Shown in pieces: positions 1 to 10,260 of a stretch of DNA of 46,312 nt. A program made the translations under genes and the position numbers. The notes under the pieces were generated by a model. The model was not told the origin of the DNA. It made no database searches and saw only the letters and a program-made list of their open reading frames with translations. Source of the DNA: Thalassavirus gary (lineage: Duplodnaviria; Heunggongvirae; Uroviricota; Caudoviricetes; Demerecviridae). Location of the stretch: the IMG/VR virus record IMGVR_UViG_2974784677_000001; one strand, 5' to 3'. Each line of letters begins with the position of its first letter. The stretch's first letter is position 1.

Positions 1-12
1 CCATATATCGCA

Positions 13-233
13 TTCGCACCTAGATTTCGCACCCACCCCAATCCTGGCCATGCCTTGCTGCACGCAGCTGGACTCGGCCAAATTTTTGGAGCAATCGGAT
101 TCGCACCTGCAGGCGCCTGACCAAATAGCAGAAAATATAAAACTCAAAATGCATCGAATCGGCACCTAATTTATAATAGAATTTGCACCTACTGCCATGT
201 AATCATCGAATTTGCACTTGTCGGATTTGCACC
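13..233 (+). repeat. Seven dispersed copies of a TTYGCACC-like motif
   Basis: ttcgcacc 13-20, 26-33, 100-107; tcggcacc 159-166; tttgcacc 182-189, 226-233; tttgcact 211-218. Confidence 0.8.
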
Positions 234-259
234 CAGGCGCAGGAGGGACGTCCGGAGCT

Positions 260-347
260 CTATACGTCTATCCTTCCAGACTTCTATCCATCCAGACTTC
301 TAGCCATCTATCCTTCTATCCATCTAGCCGTCTAGACTTCTATCCTT
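260..347 (+). repeat. Degenerate 8-bp tandem array, 11 units
   Basis: ctatacgt ctatcctt ccagactt ctatccat ccagactt ctagccat ctatcctt ctatccat ctagccgt ctagactt ctatcctt, in exact 8-bp phase. Confidence 0.9.
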
Positions 348-359
348 CCGTATGCCCTA

Positions 360-375
360 CTGTAAAGGTTTACAG
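360..375. promoter_or_regulatory. LexA (SOS) box
   Basis: (ta)CTGT-AAAGGTTT-ACAG(ta) matches CTGT-N8-ACAG with canonical TA flanks. Confidence 0.7.
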
Positions 376-422
376 TACACCATTCTGTATAAAATTTTAC
401 CTTATGCCGTCCCGTATAAAAT

Positions 423-439
423 ATGGCACGATTCTTGCT
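423..439 (+). promoter_or_regulatory. sigma54 (RpoN) -24/-12 site
   Basis: aTGGCACG-attc-TTGCT; GG at 425-426 and GC at 437-438, separated by the canonical 10 nt. Confidence 0.6.
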
Positions 440-449
440 TATTAAAAAG

Positions 450-520
450 TTATCCACAACTGTATATTTATACATCGCTCTAAAACGCTCTATACAGAGT
501 TATCCACAACCTTATCCACC
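450..520 (+). promoter_or_regulatory. DnaA box cluster (left)
   Basis: TTATCCACA 450-458 and 500-508; TTATCCACC 512-520. Confidence 0.75.
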
Positions 521-545
521 GCAAAACCACTGTATATTTATACAG
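460..545. promoter_or_regulatory. Two LexA boxes
   Basis: CTGTATATTTATACAG 530-545 (perfect); CTGTATATTTATACAT 460-475 (one mismatch). Confidence 0.7.
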
Positions 546-740
546 GGCTTATGTCGCAGCATATTATTTCGAATACCGTTTCTAGCGCCTCCTAGCCTCA
601 CCACGACGTTTTAAGCCTTTTAGGGTACTATGGCCTACCCTATCCTACACGCCCATAGCGCCATGTAACACTAGCACGACTTTTACGTGCTGCCGGAGCG
701 GCGCGGTTTTACAGAATGGTGTACGGTAAACGGGTAAACA

Positions 741-768
741 AAACGGCGTCACTTTTCGGTGACGCTGT
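741..768 (-). terminator. Rho-independent terminator of the minus-strand pre-early operon
   Basis: Minus strand acagcgtcac-cgaaaa-gtgacgccgt followed by tttgttt, just after the 775 stop. Confidence 0.7.
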
Positions 769-774
769 AACAGT

Positions 775-1011
775 TTAATTTATTTGGTATTTGGCACGCT
801 CTAGGATCGAAATTGCGTCATCAATTAGATTGCTTGCCGCTTCAGTATCGTGCTCAAACGGGGCGGTATTACTGACAGTTAAGTAAATAAACTGTATGGC
901 CGCCGCACTATCAGGATCTTGCTCTAGAGTAGGATCACTCGCTCTAGCTTCATGTAGCAGCCATTTAACATGCTCGAAAAAATCCGAATCGACCAAATAT
1001 TGTTTATCCAT
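775..1011 (-). CDS. Pre-early hypothetical protein, acidic (78 aa)
   Basis: ATG ORF, last in a co-oriented cluster and followed by a terminator; 15 D/E vs 5 K/R. Confidence 0.75.
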   Translation of the reverse strand: MDKQYLVDSDFFEHVKWLLHEARASDPTLEQDPDSAAAIQFIYLTVSNTAPFEHDTEAASNLIDDAISILERAKYQIN

Positions 1012-1065
1012 TTTACACCACCCAAATCATTGCAATTAAAAGTACGATGTCCAGTAAATCAATTT

Positions 1066-1290
1066 TCATCGTGGTTCAAAGTCCCGTACTATTTCTAGAA
1101 ATTCACGGATTGTAATTCCATCACACCGAATTTCCTCATCGGAGTGTTGAGTATGACGTACTGTAAACTTGTCATACTCTACTTGCTCGATTTCATCTAC
1201 TAGCACACCTTTATAGTATAAACCACGTTGTTTGTGTGCCTCATACACTTGTTGCAAAAATGATACTAACATTTCACTAGGTCTTAACAT
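1066..1290 (-). CDS. Pre-early hypothetical protein (74 aa)
   Basis: RBS GGAGG upstream of ATG; co-oriented cluster. Confidence 0.75.
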   Translation of the reverse strand: MLRPSEMLVSFLQQVYEAHKQRGLYYKGVLVDEIEQVEYDKFTVRHTQHSDEEIRCDGITIREFLEIVRDFEPR

Positions 1291-1292
1291 GG

Positions 1293-1469
1293 TTAAACCT
1301 CCACCGGATAAAGTTTGTTTACTACAGCGTACGCCGTACCGTTTTCATCTTGCCACACTTGACCAAATTCATTAGTTTCTACATGCTTCAAAATCATAGG
1401 CACAATATGACCATTATGCATAATATTGCACATCCAAGTTTGTCCTAGTGTCATAACGTGAACGCTCAT
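1293..1469 (-). CDS. Pre-early hypothetical protein (58 aa, MSVHVMTLGQTWMCN...YPVEV); not in ORF track
   Basis: Translated by hand; fills the gap, ATGA overlap with the upstream ORF, and its 3' end carries the RBS of the next gene. Confidence 0.65.
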   Translation of the reverse strand: MSVHVMTLGQTWMCNIMHNGHIVPMILKHVETNEFGQVWQDENGTAYAVVNKLYPVEV

Positions 1470-1573
1470 TTTAAAATCACCAAAATTTTATTATAGTCCA
1501 TACGTACCGTAAAAAACGGTTTGCCGTTTCTAGCAGCCCATAGCAAAGCAGTTGCATAGTTATCAAATTCCAT
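1466..1573 (-). CDS. Pre-early hypothetical peptide (35 aa, MEFDNYATALLWAARNGKPFFTVRMDYNKILVILK); not in ORF track
   Basis: Starts 1 nt after the upstream stop (TAG T ATG) and ends in an ATGA overlap with the next ORF. Confidence 0.55.
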   Translation of the reverse strand: MEFDNYATALLWAARNGKPFFTVRMDYNKILVILK

Positions 1574-1574
1574 A

Positions 1575-1805
1575 CTAATAATGTGTCGGTAGGTTAAGTC
1601 TTAACAATCCATTGCGAACACCAAAACATAGGTGCTTAGATTCTACAGGTTCAAGCTCGCAAGGGTAGCACATAAAAGACTCACCGCAAAAAACATACGG
1701 GGATACTACAGAAATATAACTCCCGTCAATGGCTACAATAACACCACATTTGCCGTTAGTATCTTTGCAGCGACCTTTTACTTTTACAATTTGGTTAACT
1801 TTCAT
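1575..1805 (-). CDS. Pre-early hypothetical protein (76 aa)
   Basis: ATG ORF in the co-oriented cluster; N-terminus is SH3/KOW-like in pattern (VKVKG...GVIVAIDG). Confidence 0.7.
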   Translation of the reverse strand: MKVNQIVKVKGRCKDTNGKCGVIVAIDGSYISVVSPYVFCGESFMCYPCELEPVESKHLCFGVRNGLLRLNLPTHY

Positions 1806-1876
1806 TTAAGGGTACTCCGTAGGGTAAAGGGTACGTATGCCGTACCCTAAAGCCGTTAACACAATGATTACACTAA

Positions 1877-2179
1877 TCATGCCAATTCTCGAATCATATC
1901 ACGTAATAAATCGGCGTCCGCATCATTGCAGTATATAAACCCGTAACCGTTACCACCGTCATGTGGGGCAACTTCTTTTAATACTTGAGATACAGTATGG
2001 TGTTTTGCTAGTATGCCTGTTTTTATACAGTGTAGCGTTCGCTTCCCTAGCAAGTCACCAGATTTTTGTAGTGTGATTTCTCCATCACTCCATAACTGGT
2101 ACACCATACCGTTTCGTGCTGCTAGGTCGTCGTTGTTAGCAGATACAAATTTTTCTGTTAATTCTGTAATAGTAATCAT
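1877..2179 (-). CDS. Pre-early hypothetical protein (100 aa)
   Basis: RBS GAGG; co-oriented cluster. Confidence 0.75.
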   Translation of the reverse strand: MITITELTEKFVSANNDDLAARNGMVYQLWSDGEITLQKSGDLLGKRTLHCIKTGILAKHHTVSQVLKEVAPHDGGNGYGFIYCNDADADLLRDMIRELA

Positions 2180-2194
2180 CGCTAATACCTCGTA

Positions 2195-2515
2195 TTATAT
2201 CCCTAGCCAGCCGTTTTCGAATCGTGCGCCCTCAAAAATAGCCCACCATGTTAACAAGTCAGCCCTAGCGTATTGGTACAGCATACCGCCATTAGTCGCG
2301 CCATTAGCAAAAGCTATAGCATACGCTAAAACTTTAGCTTTTAACACGTCCTCGACATCATTAAAAAGGCTGATATTTCGAGTAATTTCGAAATGGTATT
2401 CTTTGTTGCTCAAAAAGCATTGAGCCATTTCTAGACGTTTACTCATTGGAGTATCTGCGTTCAGTTGGTACGCTGTACTGATTTTTGGTTGTTCTAAAAA
2501 TTGTTGGTATGACAT
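2195..2515 (-). CDS. Pre-early hypothetical protein (106 aa)
   Basis: RBS GAGG, with a promoter directly upstream. Confidence 0.75.
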   Translation of the reverse strand: MSYQQFLEQPKISTAYQLNADTPMSKRLEMAQCFLSNKEYHFEITRNISLFNDVEDVLKAKVLAYAIAFANGATNGGMLYQYARADLLTWWAIFEGARFENGWLGI

Positions 2516-2558
2516 TTTGTTGCCCTCGCTTAAAGCGGTAATTATTGTCTAGGTCTTA

Positions 2559-2587
2559 ATAATACCAAAACCTAGACATGGTGTAAA
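2559..2587 (-). promoter_or_regulatory. sigma70-type pre-early promoter
   Basis: TTTACA-17 bp-TATTAT on the minus strand; -10 flanked by inverted repeat tgtctagg/cctagaca. Confidence 0.65.
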
Positions 2588-2605
2588 GTGATTTAGGTCA
2601 CACTT

Positions 2606-2914
2606 TTAAACGGGGTTATAATCAATTTGATCGATACCAATTTCACGCCATACCATAGACTTATCATCATAGCCCCAACCGTCTAGAAGCTCAAGAATTG
2701 CGCTACGTTCACGGCGGTCATATAAACCCAAGATATGCATCTCATCGTTATAGATAGTTACACCATAGGCAGGATGAACAACCATAATGATAGATTCATC
2801 ATTATCAAGATACCATAGAGTTTCACTAGGATCTTCAACTATATTATTTAGCGGTAGGGCGTCCAGTATAGTATCTAGACTGAGTAACAAAGTTTTTTCT
2901 TTTAGGTTAAACAT
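2606..2914 (-). CDS. Pre-early hypothetical protein, acidic (102 aa)
   Basis: Start moved to ATG 2914 behind GGAGG; 20 D/E vs 7 K/R. Confidence 0.75.
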   Translation of the reverse strand: MFNLKEKTLLLSLDTILDALPLNNIVEDPSETLWYLDNDESIIMVVHPAYGVTIYNDEMHILGLYDRRERSAILELLDGWGYDDKSMVWREIGIDQIDYNPV

Positions 2915-3203
2915 TTTTAACAACCTCCGCAACAACTACTTTCACGGGTACTACTTGAGTGCTACTATCAATATAGTGGTCGTGGCGTACGTCACCATAT
3001 TCCGGTAACACCATATTAGTTGTTTTGGGTACTAGTGGCACGAAAAAGATGTCGTTGTCATCTTCACTATATACACACACCGCAACTAGAACATTTTTAA
3101 TATCTAGTTCATCGCCATACCTAACAAAAGCATCCCCAAATTTTAACGTATCCGCTTGGATGCACTCATGCTCACTTTTATGATTCTCAACAGTTACAAA
3201 CAT
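2907..3203 (-). CDS. Pre-early hypothetical protein (98 aa)
   Basis: RBS GGAG; overlaps the downstream start. Confidence 0.75.
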   Translation of the reverse strand: MFVTVENHKSEHECIQADTLKFGDAFVRYGDELDIKNVLVAVCVYSEDDNDIFFVPLVPKTTNMVLPEYGDVRHDHYIDSSTQVVPVKVVVAEVVKNV

Positions 3204-3265
3204 TTAACATCTCCAGTAAGGGTAAAAACCAACCAATAGGGCTAAACAAAACGCTACACTGCAAA

Positions 3266-3388
3266 CTAGTTCAAGCATGTTATACCTACCTTATTAAGTA
3301 GTTTATCAAGTGTCGCAGCACTAGCAACAAATTCGCCAGTTTCAATACTGACACACCACCAAATAACATCAAAAAACATACGGTACAT
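3266..3388 (-). CDS. Pre-early hypothetical peptide (40 aa, MYRMFFDVIWWCVSIETGEFVASAATLDKLLNKVGITCLN); not in ORF track
   Basis: GGAGGG RBS and a promoter immediately upstream; translated by hand. Confidence 0.6.
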   Translation of the reverse strand: MYRMFFDVIWWCVSIETGEFVASAATLDKLLNKVGITCLN

Positions 3389-3417
3389 TGTTTCGCCCTC
3401 CTATTGGGTAGGACTTA

Positions 3418-3446
3418 ATCATACTAAATCTAGGCCAAAAGTCTAA
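3418..3446 (-). promoter_or_regulatory. sigma70-type pre-early promoter
   Basis: TTAGAC-17 bp-TATGAT on the minus strand; shares extended sequence with the 2559-2587 promoter. Confidence 0.6.
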
Positions 3447-3551
3447 TAACATTTAGCTATATCCACCAGCAAAACGATGCCCAGGCGTTATAAGCGCTGT
3501 AAGCCGTTATAAGAGGTTCTAGCAAAAAGCCTTGTTTTAGTATGCCTTACT

Positions 3552-3718
3552 TGTGTATAACCACTCACAACGGATTCTAGAGCCTAGGAACGCCATTCTA
3601 TATCGGATAAGCTGTGATTTAGTGTAGATAAGATCCGTTTTCCTGTTAGTATGTTGTGGATAACCAGTAGATATACAGTATTATTAGAACTTGCTAATGT
3701 GCATAAGTCTGTGTATAA
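3552..3718 (-). promoter_or_regulatory. DnaA box cluster (right, opposite orientation)
   Basis: TGTGTATAA 3552-3560, TGTGGATAA 3655-3663, TGTGTATAA 3710-3718; all match TTATNCACA on the minus strand. Confidence 0.75.
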
Positions 3719-3925
3719 AAAGTTGGCACGAAAATTTCCTAATATATAAATCAAGAAATATTTTGCTATATAATATAACTAGAAATTCTTTGACAAGCTC
3801 AAAAATCTATGAATCGAGCTATGCACAAAAGTGACTAAATATGCAGTTTTTTAACTAAAAGTGCATAAACGATTTAAATGAACTCGACTACAGGGTAGGG
3901 CTAAAATTGCTTAGAATCGCATACA

Positions 3926-3963
3926 GAGCGTTTTAGAGCTATGTATAAATATACAGTGGTTTT
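3926..3963. repeat. Inverted copy of the 459-490 and 523-544 elements, containing a LexA-like box (3941-3956)
   Basis: 3926-3957 is the reverse complement of 459-490 at 31/32; 3942-3963 is the reverse complement of 523-544 at 22/22. Confidence 0.9.
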
Positions 3964-3967
3964 CAAG

Positions 3968-3984
3968 TTGGCATGGTTATTGCT
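3968..3984 (+). promoter_or_regulatory. sigma54 (RpoN) -24/-12 site
   Basis: TTGGCATG-gtta-TTGCT with GG-N10-GC spacing; a near-match TTGGCACG-aaaa-TTTC lies at 3723-3738. Confidence 0.55.
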
Positions 3985-4169
3985 ACGTGCGCGTTTCTAT
4001 TTATATTTATAGCCCTAGGTTATATTAGTAATTACTATATTAGAAACGCCTCGATTAATAAAATTTATCGTCACGATAAAAACGTTTTGTTAGACTATAA
4101 TCCTAGATTCGCTATTATATACCCATACCGCAACAACACGGCGGGACAGAAAAGCTGAAAAGCTTCTCG

Positions 4170-4218
4170 AAAAAAGTTGAAAAAAGTTGTTGACACACTA
4201 AGCGGCTTTTGAGATACT
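4170..4218 (+). promoter_or_regulatory. Strong pre-early promoter of the A2-A1-dmp operon
   Basis: A-tract UP element, TTGACA 4190-4195, 17 bp, TG-n-GATACT 4213-4218. Confidence 0.75.
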
Positions 4219-4224
4219 AACAAC

Positions 4225-4249
4225 GTCCCCAAGGGGGCACGCTCTTTAA
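4225..4249 (+). promoter_or_regulatory. Hairpin (boxB-like) followed by boxA antitermination element
   Basis: gtccc-caag-ggggc hairpin 4225-4238, then CGCTCTTTAA 4240-4249 (cf. rrn TGCTCTTTAA, lambda CGCTCTTA). Confidence 0.6.
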
Positions 4250-4424
4250 GGCAGTAAGACGGAATGCAGTGATGCATCGAATGCCTAGACAATTTGGAAA
4301 ATGCGATTTGACCCATTGCTTACTTGATTGGATTGTTTGAGTATTAACCGTTAGCCGATTCATAGCGAGTCGGTTAACTGAGAAATACTCTCATTTAAAA
4401 CTAACCTATTAAGAGGAAAATATC

Positions 4425-4862
4425 ATGGCTAAGAAATGGACAGAAGAAATGGCGGAAAAAGCAGCAACTCTTTACACTGCTAAACTTGAAGCTGAAGGTA
4501 AAGAAGCGGCAGCACATACCGATTTTCTTGATACCATTGCGGTAGAAGTCGAGGCTGTATCAGGTAAAGCGGTTCGCTCAAAACTAACTGTTATGGGTGT
4601 TTACCAAAAACCGGACGCCGTTGCAAGTGTAGCTAAAACGAACACTGTACGTAAAGAACACTATGTACGTGCTCTAGCTCATACGCTTGGTTTAGATGCT
4701 GATGATTTAGACAGCTTGAAAAACGCTAAAATGTCAGCCCTAGCCGATTTAGCTCAAGCGATTGGTATCACTGACATTCAAGCAGCAAGCGCAAAAAATT
4801 ACGAACCGGATTTAGAAAAGGTTTGTGAAGCTTTCGAAAATGCCCGTGGTCTAGACCTATAA
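4425..4862 (+). CDS. A2: A2 protein (pre-early DNA-binding protein, second-step transfer)
   Basis: KWTEE..., VRSKLT...YQK and RKEHYVRALA motifs resemble T5 A2; synteny with A1 and dmp; GAGG RBS. Confidence 0.85.
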   Translation: MAKKWTEEMAEKAATLYTAKLEAEGKEAAAHTDFLDTIAVEVEAVSGKAVRSKLTVMGVYQKPDAVASVAKTNTVRKEHYVRALAHTLGLDADDLDSLKNAKMSALADLAQAIGITDIQAASAKNYEPDLEKVCEAFENARGLDL

Positions 4863-4875
4863 CCAACGCCTAAAC

Positions 4876-4937
4876 AATTAGGGGGAATTATCCCCCTAAT
4901 TTACAGTGTAAATTTAAACAAGTTTACACTGTAAATT
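4876..4937 (+). terminator. Two adjacent perfect hairpins after A2 (terminator or processing sites)
   Basis: aattaggggg-aattat-ccccctaatt 4876-4901; 15-bp stem aatttacagtgtaaa / tttacactgtaaatt 4898-4937. Confidence 0.6.
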
Positions 4938-4961
4938 AACCCATAAATGGAGAGTAAAACA

Positions 4962-5315
4962 ATGGCTAAGATTAGTATTAAATCACTGTTAAACAACGGC
5001 AGCGCAAAACAAGAACTACAAAACAAAGTTGAAAAACTAACAGGTGTTAGTTTTAATTGGCGTCCAAATAGCCGTATTTCTGGGCGTACACTTCAAGCCG
5101 TCATTGATTTAGCGGAGTATAGAACACCGCTATTCAATGAAAGTGAAATTAATTCACTACGCTATGAAAACAAAGCAGCAAAAACAGTAGTTATGGGGAT
5201 GTTGTGTGAAGCTCTAGAAATCAGCGACCTAGAACAACGTAAAGCAATTATGACGATTGCGAGTTGTTCAAGTGCAGATGATTTTGTTACTAAAGTTCTA
5301 TTCATGTTTGTATAA
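4962..5315 (+). CDS. Pre-early hypothetical protein (117 aa)
   Basis: Start moved to ATG 4962 behind GGAGAG; lies between A2 and A1. Confidence 0.8.
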   Translation: MAKISIKSLLNNGSAKQELQNKVEKLTGVSFNWRPNSRISGRTLQAVIDLAEYRTPLFNESEINSLRYENKAAKTVVMGMLCEALEISDLEQRKAIMTIASCSSADDFVTKVLFMFV

Positions 5316-5389
5316 CGGGACAAAATATTCTAGGGCATTCTAGCGAGTGCCTTAGTTAATATTTTTAACCGCAAAAGCGAGTATATACA

Positions 5390-7054
5390 ATGAAACAAGT
5401 TAACGAAGTAATCACAGCAAACGCAACGGCAATCATTAAAGCTGCAAAAGGTCTTAATTTTTGGGGCAAACGCCTAGACTCAAAACGCCGTGAAATTGCT
5501 ATTGCAATTCGTGATTCTCTTAAAATCACTATCCATTCTAGCGAGCTTATTGATTGGCTAGACGAAAACAAGCCAGTCAAACCAGTAAAAGCAAAAAGTC
5601 ACTCGCAGCAAGCAAAAGCTGACATTGAACCTACTTTTGCAGGTTCTATCAATGGTCGAGATTTTGACAACCTAGACGACGGTTTGTATATCTTGACGGC
5701 AGGACAGAACAACACAAAACCGCATCCAGTCTTAAATACTCTATTAGCAATTGCTAATGAGCGTGATGCAGAGTTCGGAGTTATGCCGATTAAATATACA
5801 ACCGTGCTACAGGGACGTGAACGCAAAGAGCCTAAATATCACGCAGATATTAAAAAGCATATTCTAGAGCCTGTAGATACTTGGTTAGGTGGTGAAGGTA
5901 ACGTGCTACTAGCTAACAGTGCTCAGATTCTCCCAACTGCAAAACAGCCAATTAACGCAGCCGAGCGACTAAATACAGGTGAATCATTAACTATTGTTGC
6001 TAGTCCTCGTCGCCAGACTAAAACCCTACCACGTCAAAAGAATGGGGCTTTCCGTTGGGTTTATACAACAGGTGTTTGTACTCAAATGCATTACACTGAC
6101 AGCCGAGCAGGGGCAGAAGCAGAAGCAGAACACTGTTTTGGTGGTGTGTTAATTGAAGTTCGAGACGGGCTAATCAATCACCGCCGTTTAGTAGCTGACG
6201 AAAACGGTGTTATTATTGATAACGGTTCGGTGTACTTCCCTGACGGCACTATCAAAGCTTACAATGATGTTTTTGAGCAAAAGCCTGTTATCGTGCTAGG
6301 TGATTTGCATTGTGAGAAAATGTGCGAAGACTCATTTAACAGAGCATTACGCCAGATTCACAACGAAAACCCGTCATTGGTAGTTGTTCATGATGCGCTT
6401 GATTTTATGAGCCGTAACCACCACAACCGCGAGGACTGGACATTCTTATACCAAATGCAAGACCGTGCAGTAATCGACGATTTAACCGATGTAATCAATC
6501 ACCTAAACCAGATTGCAGAATACGCGCCCGTTTTCATTGTTGAATCAAACCATGATTTAGCTCTAGATTCTTGGGTACGTGATAATAAATTCGATGTACG
6601 CAAAGACCCTAAAAACGCCCGTACATATCACGCTCTAATGCTTGCTTACATTGAAGCGATGGACAACGGCGAATTAAACGACCTTGCAAAAATGGATTTA
6701 GCATTCAGAGCACTAGCTGACAAGCTACCAGAGTTAAGCGATGATATCGAGTTCGGTAAAATCGACTCACAACGTCTAGTATTTGGTTATGATGTTTCTA
6801 TGCATGGTCATGTTGGTACAGGTGGAGCGCGTGGCTCAGCAGTATCATTCAAAAAGATGCGCATTAAAACTGTAACAGGTCACACACATTCACCTTTTGA
6901 AGATAACAATAATATTGTTGTTGGTGTAACTGGCTCTATGGAGATGGGTTATAACAAAGGTGGTACAACTTGGGACAGAGCAAACGCAGTTATTTACCCT
7001 AACTCAACTCACCAACTACTACCAACCTACCTAATCGGTGAAGCTCAATACTAA
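5390..7054 (+). CDS. A1: A1 protein (metallophosphoesterase-fold DNase; host DNA degradation and second-step transfer)
   Basis: 554 aa; GDLH, VHD, ESNHD, MHGH, GHTHSP motifs; N-terminal LNFWGKRL as in T5 A1; synteny. Confidence 0.92.
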   Translation: MKQVNEVITANATAIIKAAKGLNFWGKRLDSKRREIAIAIRDSLKITIHSSELIDWLDENKPVKPVKAKSHSQQAKADIEPTFAGSINGRDFDNLDDGLYILTAGQNNTKPHPVLNTLLAIANERDAEFGVMPIKYTTVLQGRERKEPKYHADIKKHILEPVDTWLGGEGNVLLANSAQILPTAKQPINAAERLNTGESLTIVASPRRQTKTLPRQKNGAFRWVYTTGVCTQMHYTDSRAGAEAEAEHCFGGVLIEVRDGLINHRRLVADENGVIIDNGSVYFPDGTIKAYNDVFEQKPVIVLGDLHCEKMCEDSFNRALRQIHNENPSLVVVHDALDFMSRNHHNREDWTFLYQMQDRAVIDDLTDVINHLNQIAEYAPVFIVESNHDLALDSWVRDNKFDVRKDPKNARTYHALMLAYIEAMDNGELNDLAKMDLAFRALADKLPELSDDIEFGKIDSQRLVFGYDVSMHGHVGTGGARGSAVSFKKMRIKTVTGHTHSPFEDNNNIVVGVTGSMEMGYNKGGTTWDRANAVIYPNSTHQLLPTYLIGEAQY

Positions 7055-7066
7055 TTAGTGTTTTAT

Positions 7067-7092
7067 TAATAGGCTATCAATTGATAGCCTAT
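7067..7092. terminator. Palindromic hairpin after A1
   Basis: aataggctatc-aatt-gatagcctatt. Confidence 0.55.
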
Positions 7093-7119
7093 TGCTGAAC
7101 CCATTAAGAGAGAAAAGCC

Positions 7120-7341
7120 ATGAAAAGCACACAAATTAAACTCGCAAATGTACTAGCTAGCTACTACGGCATGAAAACACAGAACCCTGCCAAAGCTAAA
7201 AAACATCTAGTACAGTTTATGAAAAAGCATGAACTAACTATGCTAGACGTACAGAATGCAATGCCTTTTGCCCGTGTCATTATTCAAAAACGTACTGATG
7301 CATTTATGAACGGCAGCACTACAGCACGATTGAACGATTAA
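7120..7341 (+). CDS. Pre-early hypothetical protein, basic (73 aa)
   Basis: AGAGAG RBS; lies between A1 and dmp. Confidence 0.75.
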   Translation: MKSTQIKLANVLASYYGMKTQNPAKAKKHLVQFMKKHELTMLDVQNAMPFARVIIQKRTDAFMNGSTTARLND

Positions 7342-7426
7342 CATTCACTAGCACATAAACCACGTGGCGGGCGCAAATGTGATGCCCGTCACACTTTTAC
7401 TTAACCGCATAAGCGAGTATTTACCA

Positions 7427-8065
7427 ATGAAAAAAGCATACATATTTGACCTAGACGGCACAACAATTGATTCTTTTCACCGTGTTGAGCCATGCCTAGA
7501 TTCACAGGGTAACTTGAATCTAGATAAATATATCAAAGAGGCTTGCACGCCTGAAAAGGTAGCCAATGACAAACTGTTGCCACTTGCCGGATACATGCAA
7601 CAACTAATCAAACAGGGTGAACTTGTTATCATCCTAACAGCTCGTTACATGCTTAATCATGATTATGTTTACCTACGCCGTAATCAATTGAGAACGCCTA
7701 TCATTTGCAGCCGTGACCAATTGAGCCGTGTATTTGGTGAAGGTAATGCAGCCCGTATCAGTGCAATGTCAGATGCACCATACAAACAACAATGGTTTGA
7801 ACATCTATTTGCTAGTATGCCACAAGTTACAGAATGGTGTTTCTTTGACGACCACGACGGTATATTAGAAATGGCTAATTCATTAAAAGGTGTAACAGCT
7901 ACCGACGCTAAATTGATGAATCAACTGTTAGAAATGCAATGGGCTGACATTTACCGCCAAGGCGAACAAGACACCGCCGAGTTGATACAAGACCTAATTG
8001 TTGAATGTTCACATCAAGACGTGATTATCAAACCGGAGTGGATTGATGAGCTTTTAGCTGAATAA
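7427..8065 (+). CDS. dmp: Deoxynucleoside-5'-monophosphatase (HAD family)
   Basis: FDLDGTTIDSFHRV and FFDDH HAD motifs; last gene of the terminal repeat as in T5; start moved to ATG 7427. Confidence 0.9.
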   Translation: MKKAYIFDLDGTTIDSFHRVEPCLDSQGNLNLDKYIKEACTPEKVANDKLLPLAGYMQQLIKQGELVIILTARYMLNHDYVYLRRNQLRTPIICSRDQLSRVFGEGNAARISAMSDAPYKQQWFEHLFASMPQVTEWCFFDDHDGILEMANSLKGVTATDAKLMNQLLEMQWADIYRQGEQDTAELIQDLIVECSHQDVIIKPEWIDELLAE

Positions 8066-8082
8066 TTAAAGAAAAGCTGTAC

Positions 8083-8140
8083 AGATGAGAATGATTACCG
8101 TCCTCAATAAGGGGGGCGGTAATGAGACTTGTTCTCATCT
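8083..8140. other. Long imperfect hairpin at the inferred terminal-repeat junction
   Basis: agatgagaa/ttctcatct outer stem plus attaccgtcctc/gggggcggtaat inner stem; no U-tract. Confidence 0.7.
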
Positions 8141-8197
8141 ACGGTGGGGTCTACACCCCCTCCCACGTAACTACTTTGGTTTTTTCGAAAAACCATT

Positions 8198-8286
8198 AAG
8201 GTGCTATTATAAAATAAAATTTTTTGAATTTTTCAAGATTAAGTAAAGGTGCTATTATAAAATAAAATTTTTTGATTTTTCAAGAT
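8198..8286 (-). repeat. Tandem 42/41-bp direct repeat, each copy with a leftward TTGAAA...TATAAT promoter-like motif
   Basis: aaggtgctattataaaataaaattttttga(a)tttttcaagat at 8198-8239 and 8246-8286; spacers 19 and 18 bp. Confidence 0.8.
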
Positions 8287-8315
8287 AAAATAAAGACACT
8301 GCTAAAACAGTGCCT
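8285..8315 (-). terminator. Terminator of the RBP gene
   Basis: Minus strand aggcactg-ttttag-cagtgtct followed by ttattttat. Confidence 0.65.
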
Positions 8316-10260
8316 ATGCCGTACCCAATATATAGAAACCTAACCGTACCTCAGGTGTCTTGTACGTTACGTCCCTCTCGCCAAGTTTATTATAATATGT
8401 TGTCTTGCCAGAATACTCAGCACACTGTAGGGCAGCATTAGTAAGTTTATACCACCCTACCAATTCTAGCTCATTGCGCACCCAATTTACCCGTATCTTA
8501 TATTGTATTCTTACAGCCTGCATCTTATTACCAGTACTAGAGAAATACCACCAAGACCTATCCGAGCTTGTTTTTGATACATCTCGCATTGTGCTGAATC
8601 CTATATCAGATACAACCGCTTCCTTATCAGGATGATCCTTACTAAATATCATGTATTGTAAGTTTGACCAGCCGGAATATCCATCAATACCTACATTCAT
8701 TTTAGACGTTTTACCAGCAATCGTGCTACTCGCCTCCCCCTTCAAGTATGGTGAGCTAACATGCACTGATAAATAGCTCTTATTAGTACTGCCTGGTGGT
8801 AGCTTTATTCTTTGTTTCACCACTGTTTTATAGTAATTCCCACATTGGTCAGGGTTCAGAACACGTCTCCAATCTGATGGCCCGAAGTCTATTACCTCTT
8901 TCTTGAATGAAGTACCTTGTTTTAATTGTGCGAAGGTATTGGTTTCAGCTGGAAATACCGCCGTAATAGCCGAATCACCGCCAAGTACAAAAGGTGTATA
9001 CTTTCTAGCCTTTGATGCTATTAAATATTCACCTTTACTTCCTTTATATTTAATCTCATCCGCCGAGAAGTCTAGTGATACGCCAGTCCCAAGAAGCGCT
9101 GACGGGGAGTGCACTAGTAGTATAGTATCAATGTTATACCAGCCTGTACCCTCATTAACACTCCAGTTACCATTGCTACTCTTAAAAAATCTACAGTAAG
9201 GGAATGGGTAGTCTGCTAGTTGTGCCAACGTCAAACCCTTTACTAGCCTGTCAAAAAACGGATACTTGACTTTATATTTATGACTAGAAATTGTACTATC
9301 TAGTAAATCTTCATTTGGAGCAGGATCCGTTATGAACATTCCGTTTTTCATAGCTAAATCCCCTACTACCATATCTTCACGAGATATGCGTATACCATCA
9401 CTTACATCAGGCTTCACATGTTCTAGTTTGTTGCTAGAATTATATTTTACATTAAATATATAAATAATTAATTTGAAGTTACTATCTGATGGGTTAGTAG
9501 ATGAGTAAGTTAGAGTAGTTGGAGCTGATGCTGTAGGTCTAATAATACGCATCCTAGATGATGTAGTACCATTAGCGAACAGTGCTCTATTTATTTTGTT
9601 TTCCTTAGTGAAACTAGCTGATGTAGCTCTACTAGCTGATGCAGACACATTTGGAGACTGAATTACTCTTTTATAGTTCTTAGTTTTCGGTGCTAAACCA
9701 GATATGCTCCAGTTATTTCTATAGTAACTTTTACTAGTAGGGTAGTCTGTTATAAATGAATCACTTTGGATACGCACTGCTTGATCCACCGTTTCGTCAG
9801 CATTAGCCATATCATGCATATCTATAGGTGCCCAACCACTGGAAATACCACCGTAAGGGTGTCCTCCTCCCATAGAACCTTGAAAATTACCTATAAATAT
9901 ATCTGCCGAAGTAGGAGACCAGTCACTAGAATATACACCTATAGGTCTATGCTCTACGTAGTTAGGGTGGTATGATACGTTTGAGCCACACATTAGGTAT
10001 CCTTGGTTCATGTAGTTCCATACCTCTTGTGGTATAACCGGTTCATAGTAGTGGTAATATCTAGTACCCGATTGTCTAGCTTCTACGTGCTTAAATTGAG
10101 TTACCTCTATAACCTTTGATATTGCTAAGTATGGTATATCTGAGTGAAATAGCGTTGAGGCTATAGGTGCCCCATGTAATTGAGAAATAGACTCACTGCC
10201 ACTAGTTACATGTAATAGTGGTCTATTATCTGAGGGCTTTCTGCCCATAAAAAGTGCCAT
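8314..10260 (-). CDS. pb5: Receptor-binding protein, pb5/Oad-like (648 aa)
   Basis: N-terminus MALFMGR...LFHSDIPYL resembles T5 pb5 (...IFHSDMPF); divergent from terS as in T5; AGGAGG RBS. Confidence 0.8.
   Translation of the reverse strand: MALFMGRKPSDNRPLLHVTSGSESISQLHGAPIASTLFHSDIPYLAISKVIEVTQFKHVEARQSGTRYYHYYEPVIPQEVWNYMNQGYLMCGSNVSYHPNYVEHRPIGVYSSDWSPTSADIFIGNFQGSMGGGHPYGGISSGWAPIDMHDMANADETVDQAVRIQSDSFITDYPTSKSYYRNNWSISGLAPKTKNYKRVIQSPNVSASASRATSASFTKENKINRALFANGTTSSRMRIIRPTASAPTTLTYSSTNPSDSNFKLIIYIFNVKYNSSNKLEHVKPDVSDGIRISREDMVVGDLAMKNGMFITDPAPNEDLLDSTISSHKYKVKYPFFDRLVKGLTLAQLADYPFPYCRFFKSSNGNWSVNEGTGWYNIDTILLVHSPSALLGTGVSLDFSADEIKYKGSKGEYLIASKARKYTPFVLGGDSAITAVFPAETNTFAQLKQGTSFKKEVIDFGPSDWRRVLNPDQCGNYYKTVVKQRIKLPPGSTNKSYLSVHVSSPYLKGEASSTIAGKTSKMNVGIDGYSGWSNLQYMIFSKDHPDKEAVVSDIGFSTMRDVSKTSSDRSWWYFSSTGNKMQAVRIQYKIRVNWVRNELELVGWYKLTNAALQCAEYSGKTTYYNKLGERDVTYKTPEVRLGFYILGTA

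Follow-up and report, generated by a model that had tools for sequence, protein, structure and literature searches.

A candidate rrn-type boxA leader at the head of the pre-early operon of T5-like phages

The control of pre-early transcription in T5-like phages is described as poorly understood in a passage of PMC7472727. Here, we analyse the leader of the A2 gene in a Vibrio phage of this type, Thalassavirus gary, using as reference the whole available stretch of 46,312 nucleotides (nt), hereafter the window. The window is ~99% identical to phage Brizo, and a 400-nt query around the A2 leader matches solely T5-family Vibrio phages (Demerecviridae, for the most part Ermolyevavirinae), with Brizo (99%) and Achelous (98%) at the top; the matched stretches overlap genes annotated as A2. 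PHROG scans give the pre-early gene order as A2, orf122, A1, and a gene in the position of dmp; by the T5 annotation, this A2-orf122-A1-dmp cluster corresponds to the pre-early, first-step-transfer operon of T5. Shortly after a predicted sigma-70 promoter, the leader of this operon carries a boxA whose core (RNA GCUCUUUAA) is identical to the boxA cores of the ribosomal RNA (rrn) operons of Vibrio harveyi and Escherichia coli.

The A2 leader and the conservation of its boxA

The features of the leader region are listed below, all in window coordinates.

4091-4118, + strand: upstream promoter-like site, TAGACT, 16 base pairs (bp), TATTAT (9/12 in the consensus scan)
4128-4144, + strand: small hairpin with CCGC/GCGG arms after the upstream promoter-like site, counterpart of the hairpin preceding the distal boxA in Vibrio phage ValS_X1
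4170-4189, + strand: duplicated A-tract, AAAAAAGTTG twice, resembling an UP element, directly upstream of the -35 hexamer
4190-4218, + strand: predicted sigma-70 promoter, TTGACA, 17 bp, extended -10 TG-n-GATACT (10/12 hexamer matches, TG present), conserved in the 13-sequence alignment
4225-4238, + strand: boxB-like 5' hairpin of 5 bp, GUCCC/GGGGC with a CAAG loop (fold -8.8 kcal/mol), ending 2 nt before boxA
4240-4249, + strand: boxA CGCTCTTTAA, core GCTCTTTAA at 4241-4249, proposed NusB-NusE binding site
4250-4289, + strand: 40-nt lineage-specific insertion, defined by alignment, with an imperfect hairpin at 4250-4285 (fold -9.2 kcal/mol, z = -1.25)
4290-4338, + strand: conserved linker starting CAATTTGGAA, which in relatives abuts boxA directly and completes a spacer-type extended boxA
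4339-4390, + strand: long leader hairpin, outer helix 4339-4345/4384-4390 (7 bp) and inner helix 4350-4361/4367-4378 (12 bp), candidate processing or stability element
4411-4416, + strand: A2 Shine-Dalgarno sequence AAGAGG, complementary to CUCUU of boxA

An initial annotation of the window had read this region as a mimic of rrn leaders, and the promoter, the 5' hairpin, the boxA, and the long stem that it listed are all found at these positions. The count of the 9-mer GCTCTTTAA in the window is by itself not significant, as it occurs once against 0.83 copies expected, 58 of 100 shuffled sequences hold at least one copy, and its one-mismatch variants are at or below expectation. As such, the case for the element rests on comparison with relatives. 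We therefore aligned the window with 11 non-redundant A2 leaders and with the distant Vibrio phage D239, which has one boxA copy and an A1 that is only 39% identical. An exact GCTCTTTAA lies 133-184 nt before the A2 start codon in all 13 of these leaders, and the boxA columns are invariant in an alignment with a mean column identity of 61%. The complete gammaproteobacterial consensus, GYTCTTTAANA (Baniulyte et al. 2017, PMC5725501), is satisfied by T5 and by each of the 12 Vibrio-phage leaders other than the window.

The sequences upstream of boxA vary more. Specifically, one promoter and hairpin without relation to those of the window is common to AG74 and PVo5, River4 has another, and all three keep boxA; the homology of the window with these phages starts exactly at GCTCTTTAA. 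boxA may thus also be a recombination junction for the exchange of promoter modules. In VF16, ValS_X1, AG74, and PVo5, a second promoter-hairpin-boxA module is located further upstream, before other small open reading frames (ORFs). Two other causes of conservation were considered and set aside: minus-strand ORFs at 4095-4316 and 4217-4363 are broken by the 40-nt insertion and other non-triplet indels among close relatives, and a reading as an IHF or other DNA site, judged by eye, fits the motif far worse than exact identity to the rrn boxA.

We find the same arrangement in T5 itself (NC_005859). On the pre-early strand of this genome, an unannotated promoter-like site (TTGCGC, 17 bp, TATTAT; ~5068-5040, minus strand) is followed by a GGCGG/CCGCC hairpin and, 2 nt later, by GCTCTTTAAAAATTGGG at 4988-4980 (minus strand). 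This boxA stands at the head of the T5.008-A2-A1-dmp operon, upstream of T5.008, and its region matches 461 phage records. It also lies inside T5.009, an annotated 35-codon ORF (4915-5022, minus strand) that spans both leader hairpin and boxA; T5.009 is probably not a gene, as suggested by large non-triplet indels in the relatives bastian and 100268_sal2. A second boxA-like sequence of T5, GTTCTTTAA at ~4589 (minus strand), falls inside the annotated promoter region P-D/E20 (4338-4664); it fits the consensus Y at position 2 but not position 11, and could act on transcripts whose start lies downstream of the first boxA.

When T5 was aligned with five other phages of the Markadamsvirinae and one T5-like contig from IMG/VR, seven sequences in all, the 13-mer GCTCTTTAAAAAT proved invariant. 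The hairpin before boxA varies in this alignment, and that of Eos shows compensatory changes (GGCAGG/CCTGCC). Upstream of A2, boxA occurs in two sense copies both in Klebsiella phage K7_rec11 and in Pantoea phage AAS21. In five complete genomes, all terminal-repeat copies of boxA are on the strand of the pre-early operon, and outside the repeats there are 9 copies vs 10 for a reversed-pattern control. Some phages have two copies per terminal repeat and hence four per genome. The initial annotation had staked its proposal on the conservation of boxA, and the motif is indeed conserved: four Demerecviridae lineages have it without variation, either upstream of A2 or where the pre-early operon begins; the Shewanella phage 1/40, which is not T5-like, has no boxA.

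The similarity to host rRNA operons extends beyond the core. Most Vibrio phages read the 19-mer GCTCTTTAACAATTTGGAA, i.e. boxA plus linker, and this 19-mer is exact in at least 120 genomic stretches, mostly from Vibrionaceae and related marine gammaproteobacteria. At the eight loci checked, including V. harveyi, a recorded host species, the 19-mer sits in the 16S-23S spacer, 200-360 nt before the 5' end of 23S, and at seven of the eight there is a second boxA in the 16S leader. The V. harveyi rrn leaders run from promoter to hairpin, a gap of 2-5 nt, boxA, and boxC, and E. coli rrnH has the same layout, which bears out the boxB-then-boxA order that had been proposed for the phage. In these host leaders, boxC (TCTGTGTGGGCACTC) follows boxA by ~20 nt. 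The spacer boxA of E. coli rrnH is the A-variant GCTCTTTAAAAATCTGG, which is common to enterobacterial T5-like phages. Because the flanks match those of host spacers (CAATTTGG in Vibrio, AAAT(C/T)TGG in enterobacteria), the phage elements follow the host's own signal past the 9-nt core.

Outside T5-like phages, a scan of IMG/VR with GCTCTTTAA[AC]AAT[CT]TGG found at least 118 viral loci, none with rRNA signatures. These include five contigs that are T5-like by A1/A2 homology, and some contigs of ~39-40 kb with the motif near position 800, which are T7-like in both length and motif position. Consensus sigma-70 promoters are present directly upstream of the motif in L141, L147, L193, L195-L197, L222, and L242. 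Two abundant families of the motif (L165 and L158; E. coli loci L264 and L265) occur in early regions of lambdoid-type prophages of E. coli, and are present in 1534 and 537 of 5426 E. coli genomes. These sites adjoin repressor-like genes and precede early genes (yfdP/Q/R; Rha, GamL, RecT, and exonuclease), and each is probably a nut-like site in which a hairpin precedes a perfect rrn boxA.

Promoters, leader RNA, and the downstream operon

In a consensus scan of positions 1-9000, the promoter at 4190-4218 is the joint second-best of all promoter-like sites and the best on the + strand. It ends 22 nt upstream of boxA, and its predicted start lies near G4225, which would leave ~17 nt between the start and the boxA core. 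The block AAAAAAGT(A/T)GTTGACA is kept in 10 of the 13 Vibrio-phage leaders, and the A-tract at 4170-4189 may act as an UP element, as its resemblance to such elements suggests. The upstream promoter-like site at 4091-4118 is homologous to the distal promoter of ValS_X1, which there has its own hairpin and boxA, and resembles the promoters of AG74 and River4; in the window, no boxA directly follows it. Since the window retains this distal promoter and its hairpin (4091-4144) without the distal boxA, two tandem promoters would feed a single boxA. The same site is overlapped by an unannotated ORF of 61 codons (3973-4158, + strand) that has a hydrophobic stretch at its N-terminus; its position is held by different small ORFs in relatives (VF16_005, vBValSX1_146, and River4 gp12).

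The hairpin at 4225-4238 is probably at the very 5' end of the transcript. Taken alone its fold is weak (z = -1.7). Comparison points to a compensatory change, as the window has GUCCC/GGGGC where most relatives have GUUCC/GGAAC, with G-U intermediates in existence. Unrelated hairpins occupy the same place in AG74, PVo5, River4, T5, and Eos, and in T5 and the other Vibrio modules the hairpin ends 1-6 nt before boxA. The insertion that follows boxA, itself a weak hairpin, is confined to the window, Brizo, Achelous, and Pylo, and is present as a single copy in the window. It is because of this insertion that the untranslated leader reaches ~200 nt; the 200-nt leader of the initial annotation thus holds for the window's lineage and not for the other Vibrio-phage relatives, where boxA and ATG are 133-170 nt apart.

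The long hairpin at 4339-4390 is highly stable given its base composition (-23.3 kcal/mol, z = -6.4, with none of 200 shuffled sequences as stable). Double compensatory changes affect 8 of the 11 inner-stem pairs predicted by RNAalifold; in our own count, 10 of the 12 pairs of this stem are paired in at least 12 of the 13 sequences, and the remaining two in 10 and 13. In the outer helix, the pair 4343/4386 changes from A-U to G-C in three phages. The alternative register of this stem suggested in the initial annotation, TTAACCG with CGGTTAA, is present in the window but finds no support elsewhere, as relatives keep TTAACCG while the 3' arm no longer pairs. Lacking a U-tract, the hairpin does not qualify as an intrinsic terminator. 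Its ~19 bp and internal loop recall the RNase III sites found in T7 early mRNA, and it is probably a separate RNA element, our guess being a processing or stability signal. A loop motif shared by this hairpin and the one between orf122 and A1 (TAGCGAGT) was considered and dropped, as pattern searches with it were not above chance. A permissive Rfam scan of 3500-5500 returned no known family, just sub-threshold microRNA and small RNA noise.

Downstream of the leader, the operon comprises the following genes and structures.

4425-4862, + strand: A2, DNA-binding protein, first gene of the operon (phrog_1725, E = 4e-38; annotated as A2 in relatives)
4877-4938, + strand: two adjacent strong hairpins between A2 and orf122 (z = -6.2)
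4947-5315, + strand: orf122, conserved pre-early gene (phrog_15459, E = 3e-62)
5322-5365, + strand: long stem before A1 (z = -5.0), called terminator-like by a simple scan, with a U-tail that pairs with an upstream A-run
5390-7054, + strand: A1, DNA transfer protein with a metallophosphoesterase fold (phrog_1745, E = 5e-167; Pfam Metallophos)
7067-7094, + strand: stable intergenic hairpin in an operon gap
7364-8065, + strand: dmp-position gene (phrog_415, named 'polynucleotide kinase' in PHROG, E = 2.5e-39), placed as dmp is in T5 and Pantoea phage AAS21

A very stable hairpin of 10-19 near-perfect bp (z = -5 to -6) is present in each gap between genes of the operon. As the U-tail of the stem before A1 pairs with the upstream A-run, this hairpin looks less like a terminator than like a double-stranded element for processing or stability.

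Proposed antitermination and the alternatives

We think it fairly likely that Nus factors are loaded at this element in the manner of rrn boxA sites and that pre-early transcription is thereby made processive, a reading for which the sequence comparisons above argue. In this scheme, unmodified host sigma-70 RNA polymerase would start at 4190-4218, and perhaps also at the weaker upstream promoter. The nascent RNA would first fold the short 5' hairpin and then present boxA as a single strand. Host NusB-NusE(S10) would bind boxA and be joined by NusA, NusG, and SuhB, giving a processive, Rho-resistant polymerase that ignores hairpins; in vitro, termination of both the Rho-dependent and the intrinsic kind is suppressed by the complete rrn complex (PMC6614801), and the hairpin-bearing gaps of the operon make it a template of that sort. 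Such a polymerase could cross the ~200-nt untranslated leader and the structured intergenic regions to reach A1 and dmp, while the long hairpin at 4339-4390 may serve as an RNase III-like processing or stability signal, akin to the site after the T7 boxA. From sequence we infer where transcription starts, that Nus factors bind, that termination is suppressed, and what the hairpin does; the recruitment of Nus factors and SuhB, with faster elongation and Rho resistance, as the initial annotation had it, is a well-motivated proposal. Its further claim that this works without a phage N protein is plausible: no antiterminator family was matched when six pre-early ORFs were scanned against PHROG and Pfam, with several small ORFs lying outside the scan.

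Several observations weigh against this interpretation. First, the window reads GCTCTTTAAGG, with GG at positions 10-11, and so fails the full GYTCTTTAANA consensus at position 11 because of the 40-nt insertion, which also parts the boxA core from the conserved CAATTTGG linker and displaces the latter. According to crystallographic work (PMC3177189), however, no more than eight nucleotides of boxA are recognised by NusB-NusE, so the core of the window probably still works. Second, a GU-rich boxC (UGUGUGGG) 3' of boxA is absent in the window and its relatives, so that any boxC implied by the rrn analogy finds no support, and both boxC and the linker between it and boxA are reported to matter for SuhB binding (PMC6614801). 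The very need for Nus factors against Rho termination has, moreover, been questioned at native rrn loci (PMC5725501).

The other points concern relatives. No hairpin directly precedes boxA in the Klebsiella, Pantoea, D239, and IMG/VR L242 modules. Berg, Squires and Squires reportedly found in 1989 that boxB is dispensable for rrn antitermination, which would fit these hairpin-less modules. The A2 leader of Aeromonas phage AhP_Mru1 has no boxA, and the element is therefore widespread yet not universal in the family. Finally, two mapped pre-early promoters of T5, P-H22 and P-D/E20, are downstream of the boxA at 4988-4980, so that their transcripts would lack that exact copy.

Among the alternatives, one keeps the recruitment of Nus factors and changes its outcome: the main output would be translational or autoregulatory control of A2, either by looping that represses A2, as at suhB and lambda nutL-N, or by free boxA, which would stay paired to the Shine-Dalgarno sequence of A2 as long as NusB-NusE has not bound. 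The boxA stretch CUCUU matches, as its complement, AAGAG in the A2 ribosome-binding site, and the consensus structure from RNAalifold contains this pairing; both partners are invariant, however, so that covariation lends the pairing no support. As for distance, Nus complexes still repress suhB translation with boxA shifted as far as 100 nt away, and in lambda the interval from nutL to the downstream N is ~200 nt (PMC5725501); the spacing between boxA and ATG in the Vibrio phages is comparable with the lambda case. Yet boxA in the T5, Klebsiella, and Pantoea phages stands before other small genes with different ribosome-binding sites, up to ~850 nt from A2, and the distal copies precede unrelated ORFs. 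We thus regard control of A2 translation as an unlikely main function.

We give similarly little credence to an RNA stability or processing cassette that needs no Nus factors, in which the 5' hairpin would protect against 5'-end-dependent decay, a U-rich strand would be read by RNase E, Hfq, or S1, and the likeness to boxA would be convergent. The hairpin would be at the extreme 5' end of the predicted transcript, boxA is rich in pyrimidines and U, and the operon is rich in stable hairpins, all of which suit such a cassette. Convergence sits poorly, however, with 9-19 nt of exact identity to the host rrn boxA, host-specific flanks included, and with the status of the same sequence in T7, where the account discussed below has it as a proven antitermination element.

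A decoy role, in which strong pre-early promoters would flood the cell with boxA RNA and titrate NusB, NusE, and SuhB from host rrn operons, aiding shut-off, strikes us as quite improbable. The phage copies are identical to the host's, lie behind strong promoters, some of these in tandem, and in some phages number four per genome. No sequence feature needs a decoy, however, and the idea is purely inferred; nor would a decoy need a sense position at the operon head with a fixed hairpin-boxA geometry. It is also compatible with antitermination in cis and as such not an alternative to it. Least probable of all is a role at the DNA level, either as short shared homology for the recombination of promoter modules, which the abrupt start of homology at GCTCTTTAA between phages with different promoters would fit, or as a protein operator, for which no candidate binding protein was identified, since such a role leaves unexplained the identity to the host boxA, the constant sense position after a promoter, and the covarying RNA hairpins.

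If the antitermination reading is right, it bears on how T5-like phages express their pre-early genes, i.e. within minutes, from the first 8% of the genome, and by unmodified host polymerase. It leads to the hypothesis that NusB, NusE, and SuhB are needed for pre-early expression and, through it, for second-step DNA transfer and the shut-off of the host. The natural variants (with or without the hairpin, in one or two copies, and with the 40-nt insertion) offer material for dissecting what an N-independent antiterminator needs, and the insertion lineage in particular would serve as a natural experiment on how much of the extended signal is required. The element also flags annotation errors, as tiny ORFs such as T5.009 have been called across it.

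A broader idea, which we hold only tentatively and consider doubtful, is that N-independent capture of host rRNA antitermination is a general early-expression strategy of virulent phages, with boxA flanks tuned to the host spacer boxA. It would be ancestral to Demerecviridae pre-early operons and would recur in T7-like and phiEco32-like phages, and pre-early boxA RNAs would possibly compete for NusB, NusE, and SuhB, aiding shut-off.

Our literature search found no publication describing boxA or antitermination in T5-like phages, in agreement with the initial annotation, which knew of no such report. Specifically, boxA and 'phage T5' were not found together, the co-mentions of antitermination and 'bacteriophage T5' look incidental by title, and Davison's analysis of first-step transfer mentions neither boxA nor Nus.

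Comparison with known antitermination systems

One close match is to the antiterminators of rrn leaders and 16S-23S spacers, which work with NusA, NusB, NusE, NusG, SuhB, and S4. As in the phages, a hairpin precedes boxA with a gap of 2-5 nt, and as in the window, the leader boxA has the exact core and lies a short way past a strong promoter that is preceded by A-rich sequence; relatives of the window share the 19-nt identity with the spacer boxA region. The rrn operons differ in having boxC, a leader-trailer helix, and rRNA downstream, whereas the phages have neither boxC nor leader-trailer helix and a protein-coding operon downstream. In addition, no insertion follows the core in rrn, in contrast to the 40 nt inserted there in the window.

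Lambda-type nut sites share boxA and the use of host Nus factors, and the window's lineage also has a hairpin just after boxA. In nut sites, however, the hairpin is 3' of boxA, whereas the conserved hairpin of the phages studied here is 5'; the 3' hairpin is an insertion without a GNRA-like pentaloop and is limited to four close relatives. In lambda, the hairpin binds the arginine-rich N protein, while no N-like protein was found among the six pre-early ORFs scanned in the window. The lambda boxA is the shortened CGCTCTTA, and that of the window is the full rrn version.

Bacteria also have boxA elements outside rrn, among them that in the 5' untranslated region of suhB (Baniulyte et al. 2017, PMC5725501), which are, like that of the phages, stand-alone copies in an mRNA leader and recruit a Nus complex. 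They act, however, by repression (i.e. a translation block and Rho termination) and are within ~50 nt of the start codon, whereas the phage boxA is 133-184 nt upstream and directly after the promoter.

Phage T7 provides a close parallel among virulent phages. Its boxA, GCTCTTTAACAATCTGG, is located at nt 813, between promoters A1-A3 and gene 0.3 (compared over nt 498-925). Like the phage of the window, T7 is virulent and without an N protein, and has an exact rrn-type boxA after strong sigma-70 early promoters and before the first gene. Both phages also have structured RNA between boxA and the first gene, which in T7 is the R0.3 RNase III site. The two belong to different families (Autographiviridae vs Demerecviridae) without homology outside the motif, and no hairpin directly precedes the T7 boxA, where the gap in the fold is ~10 nt, vs 2 nt in the window. 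In the passage of PMC3709561 that cites Savalia 2010, mutations in the T7 'boxA anti-termination element' are said to make gp2 dispensable. Genetic evidence for antitermination thus exists in T7. The T5-like element, in turn, would serve a first-step-transfer operon. The principle of borrowing boxA is accordingly not new, and the T5-like case is an added member, one that would carry what is known from T7 over to another large family of virulent phages.

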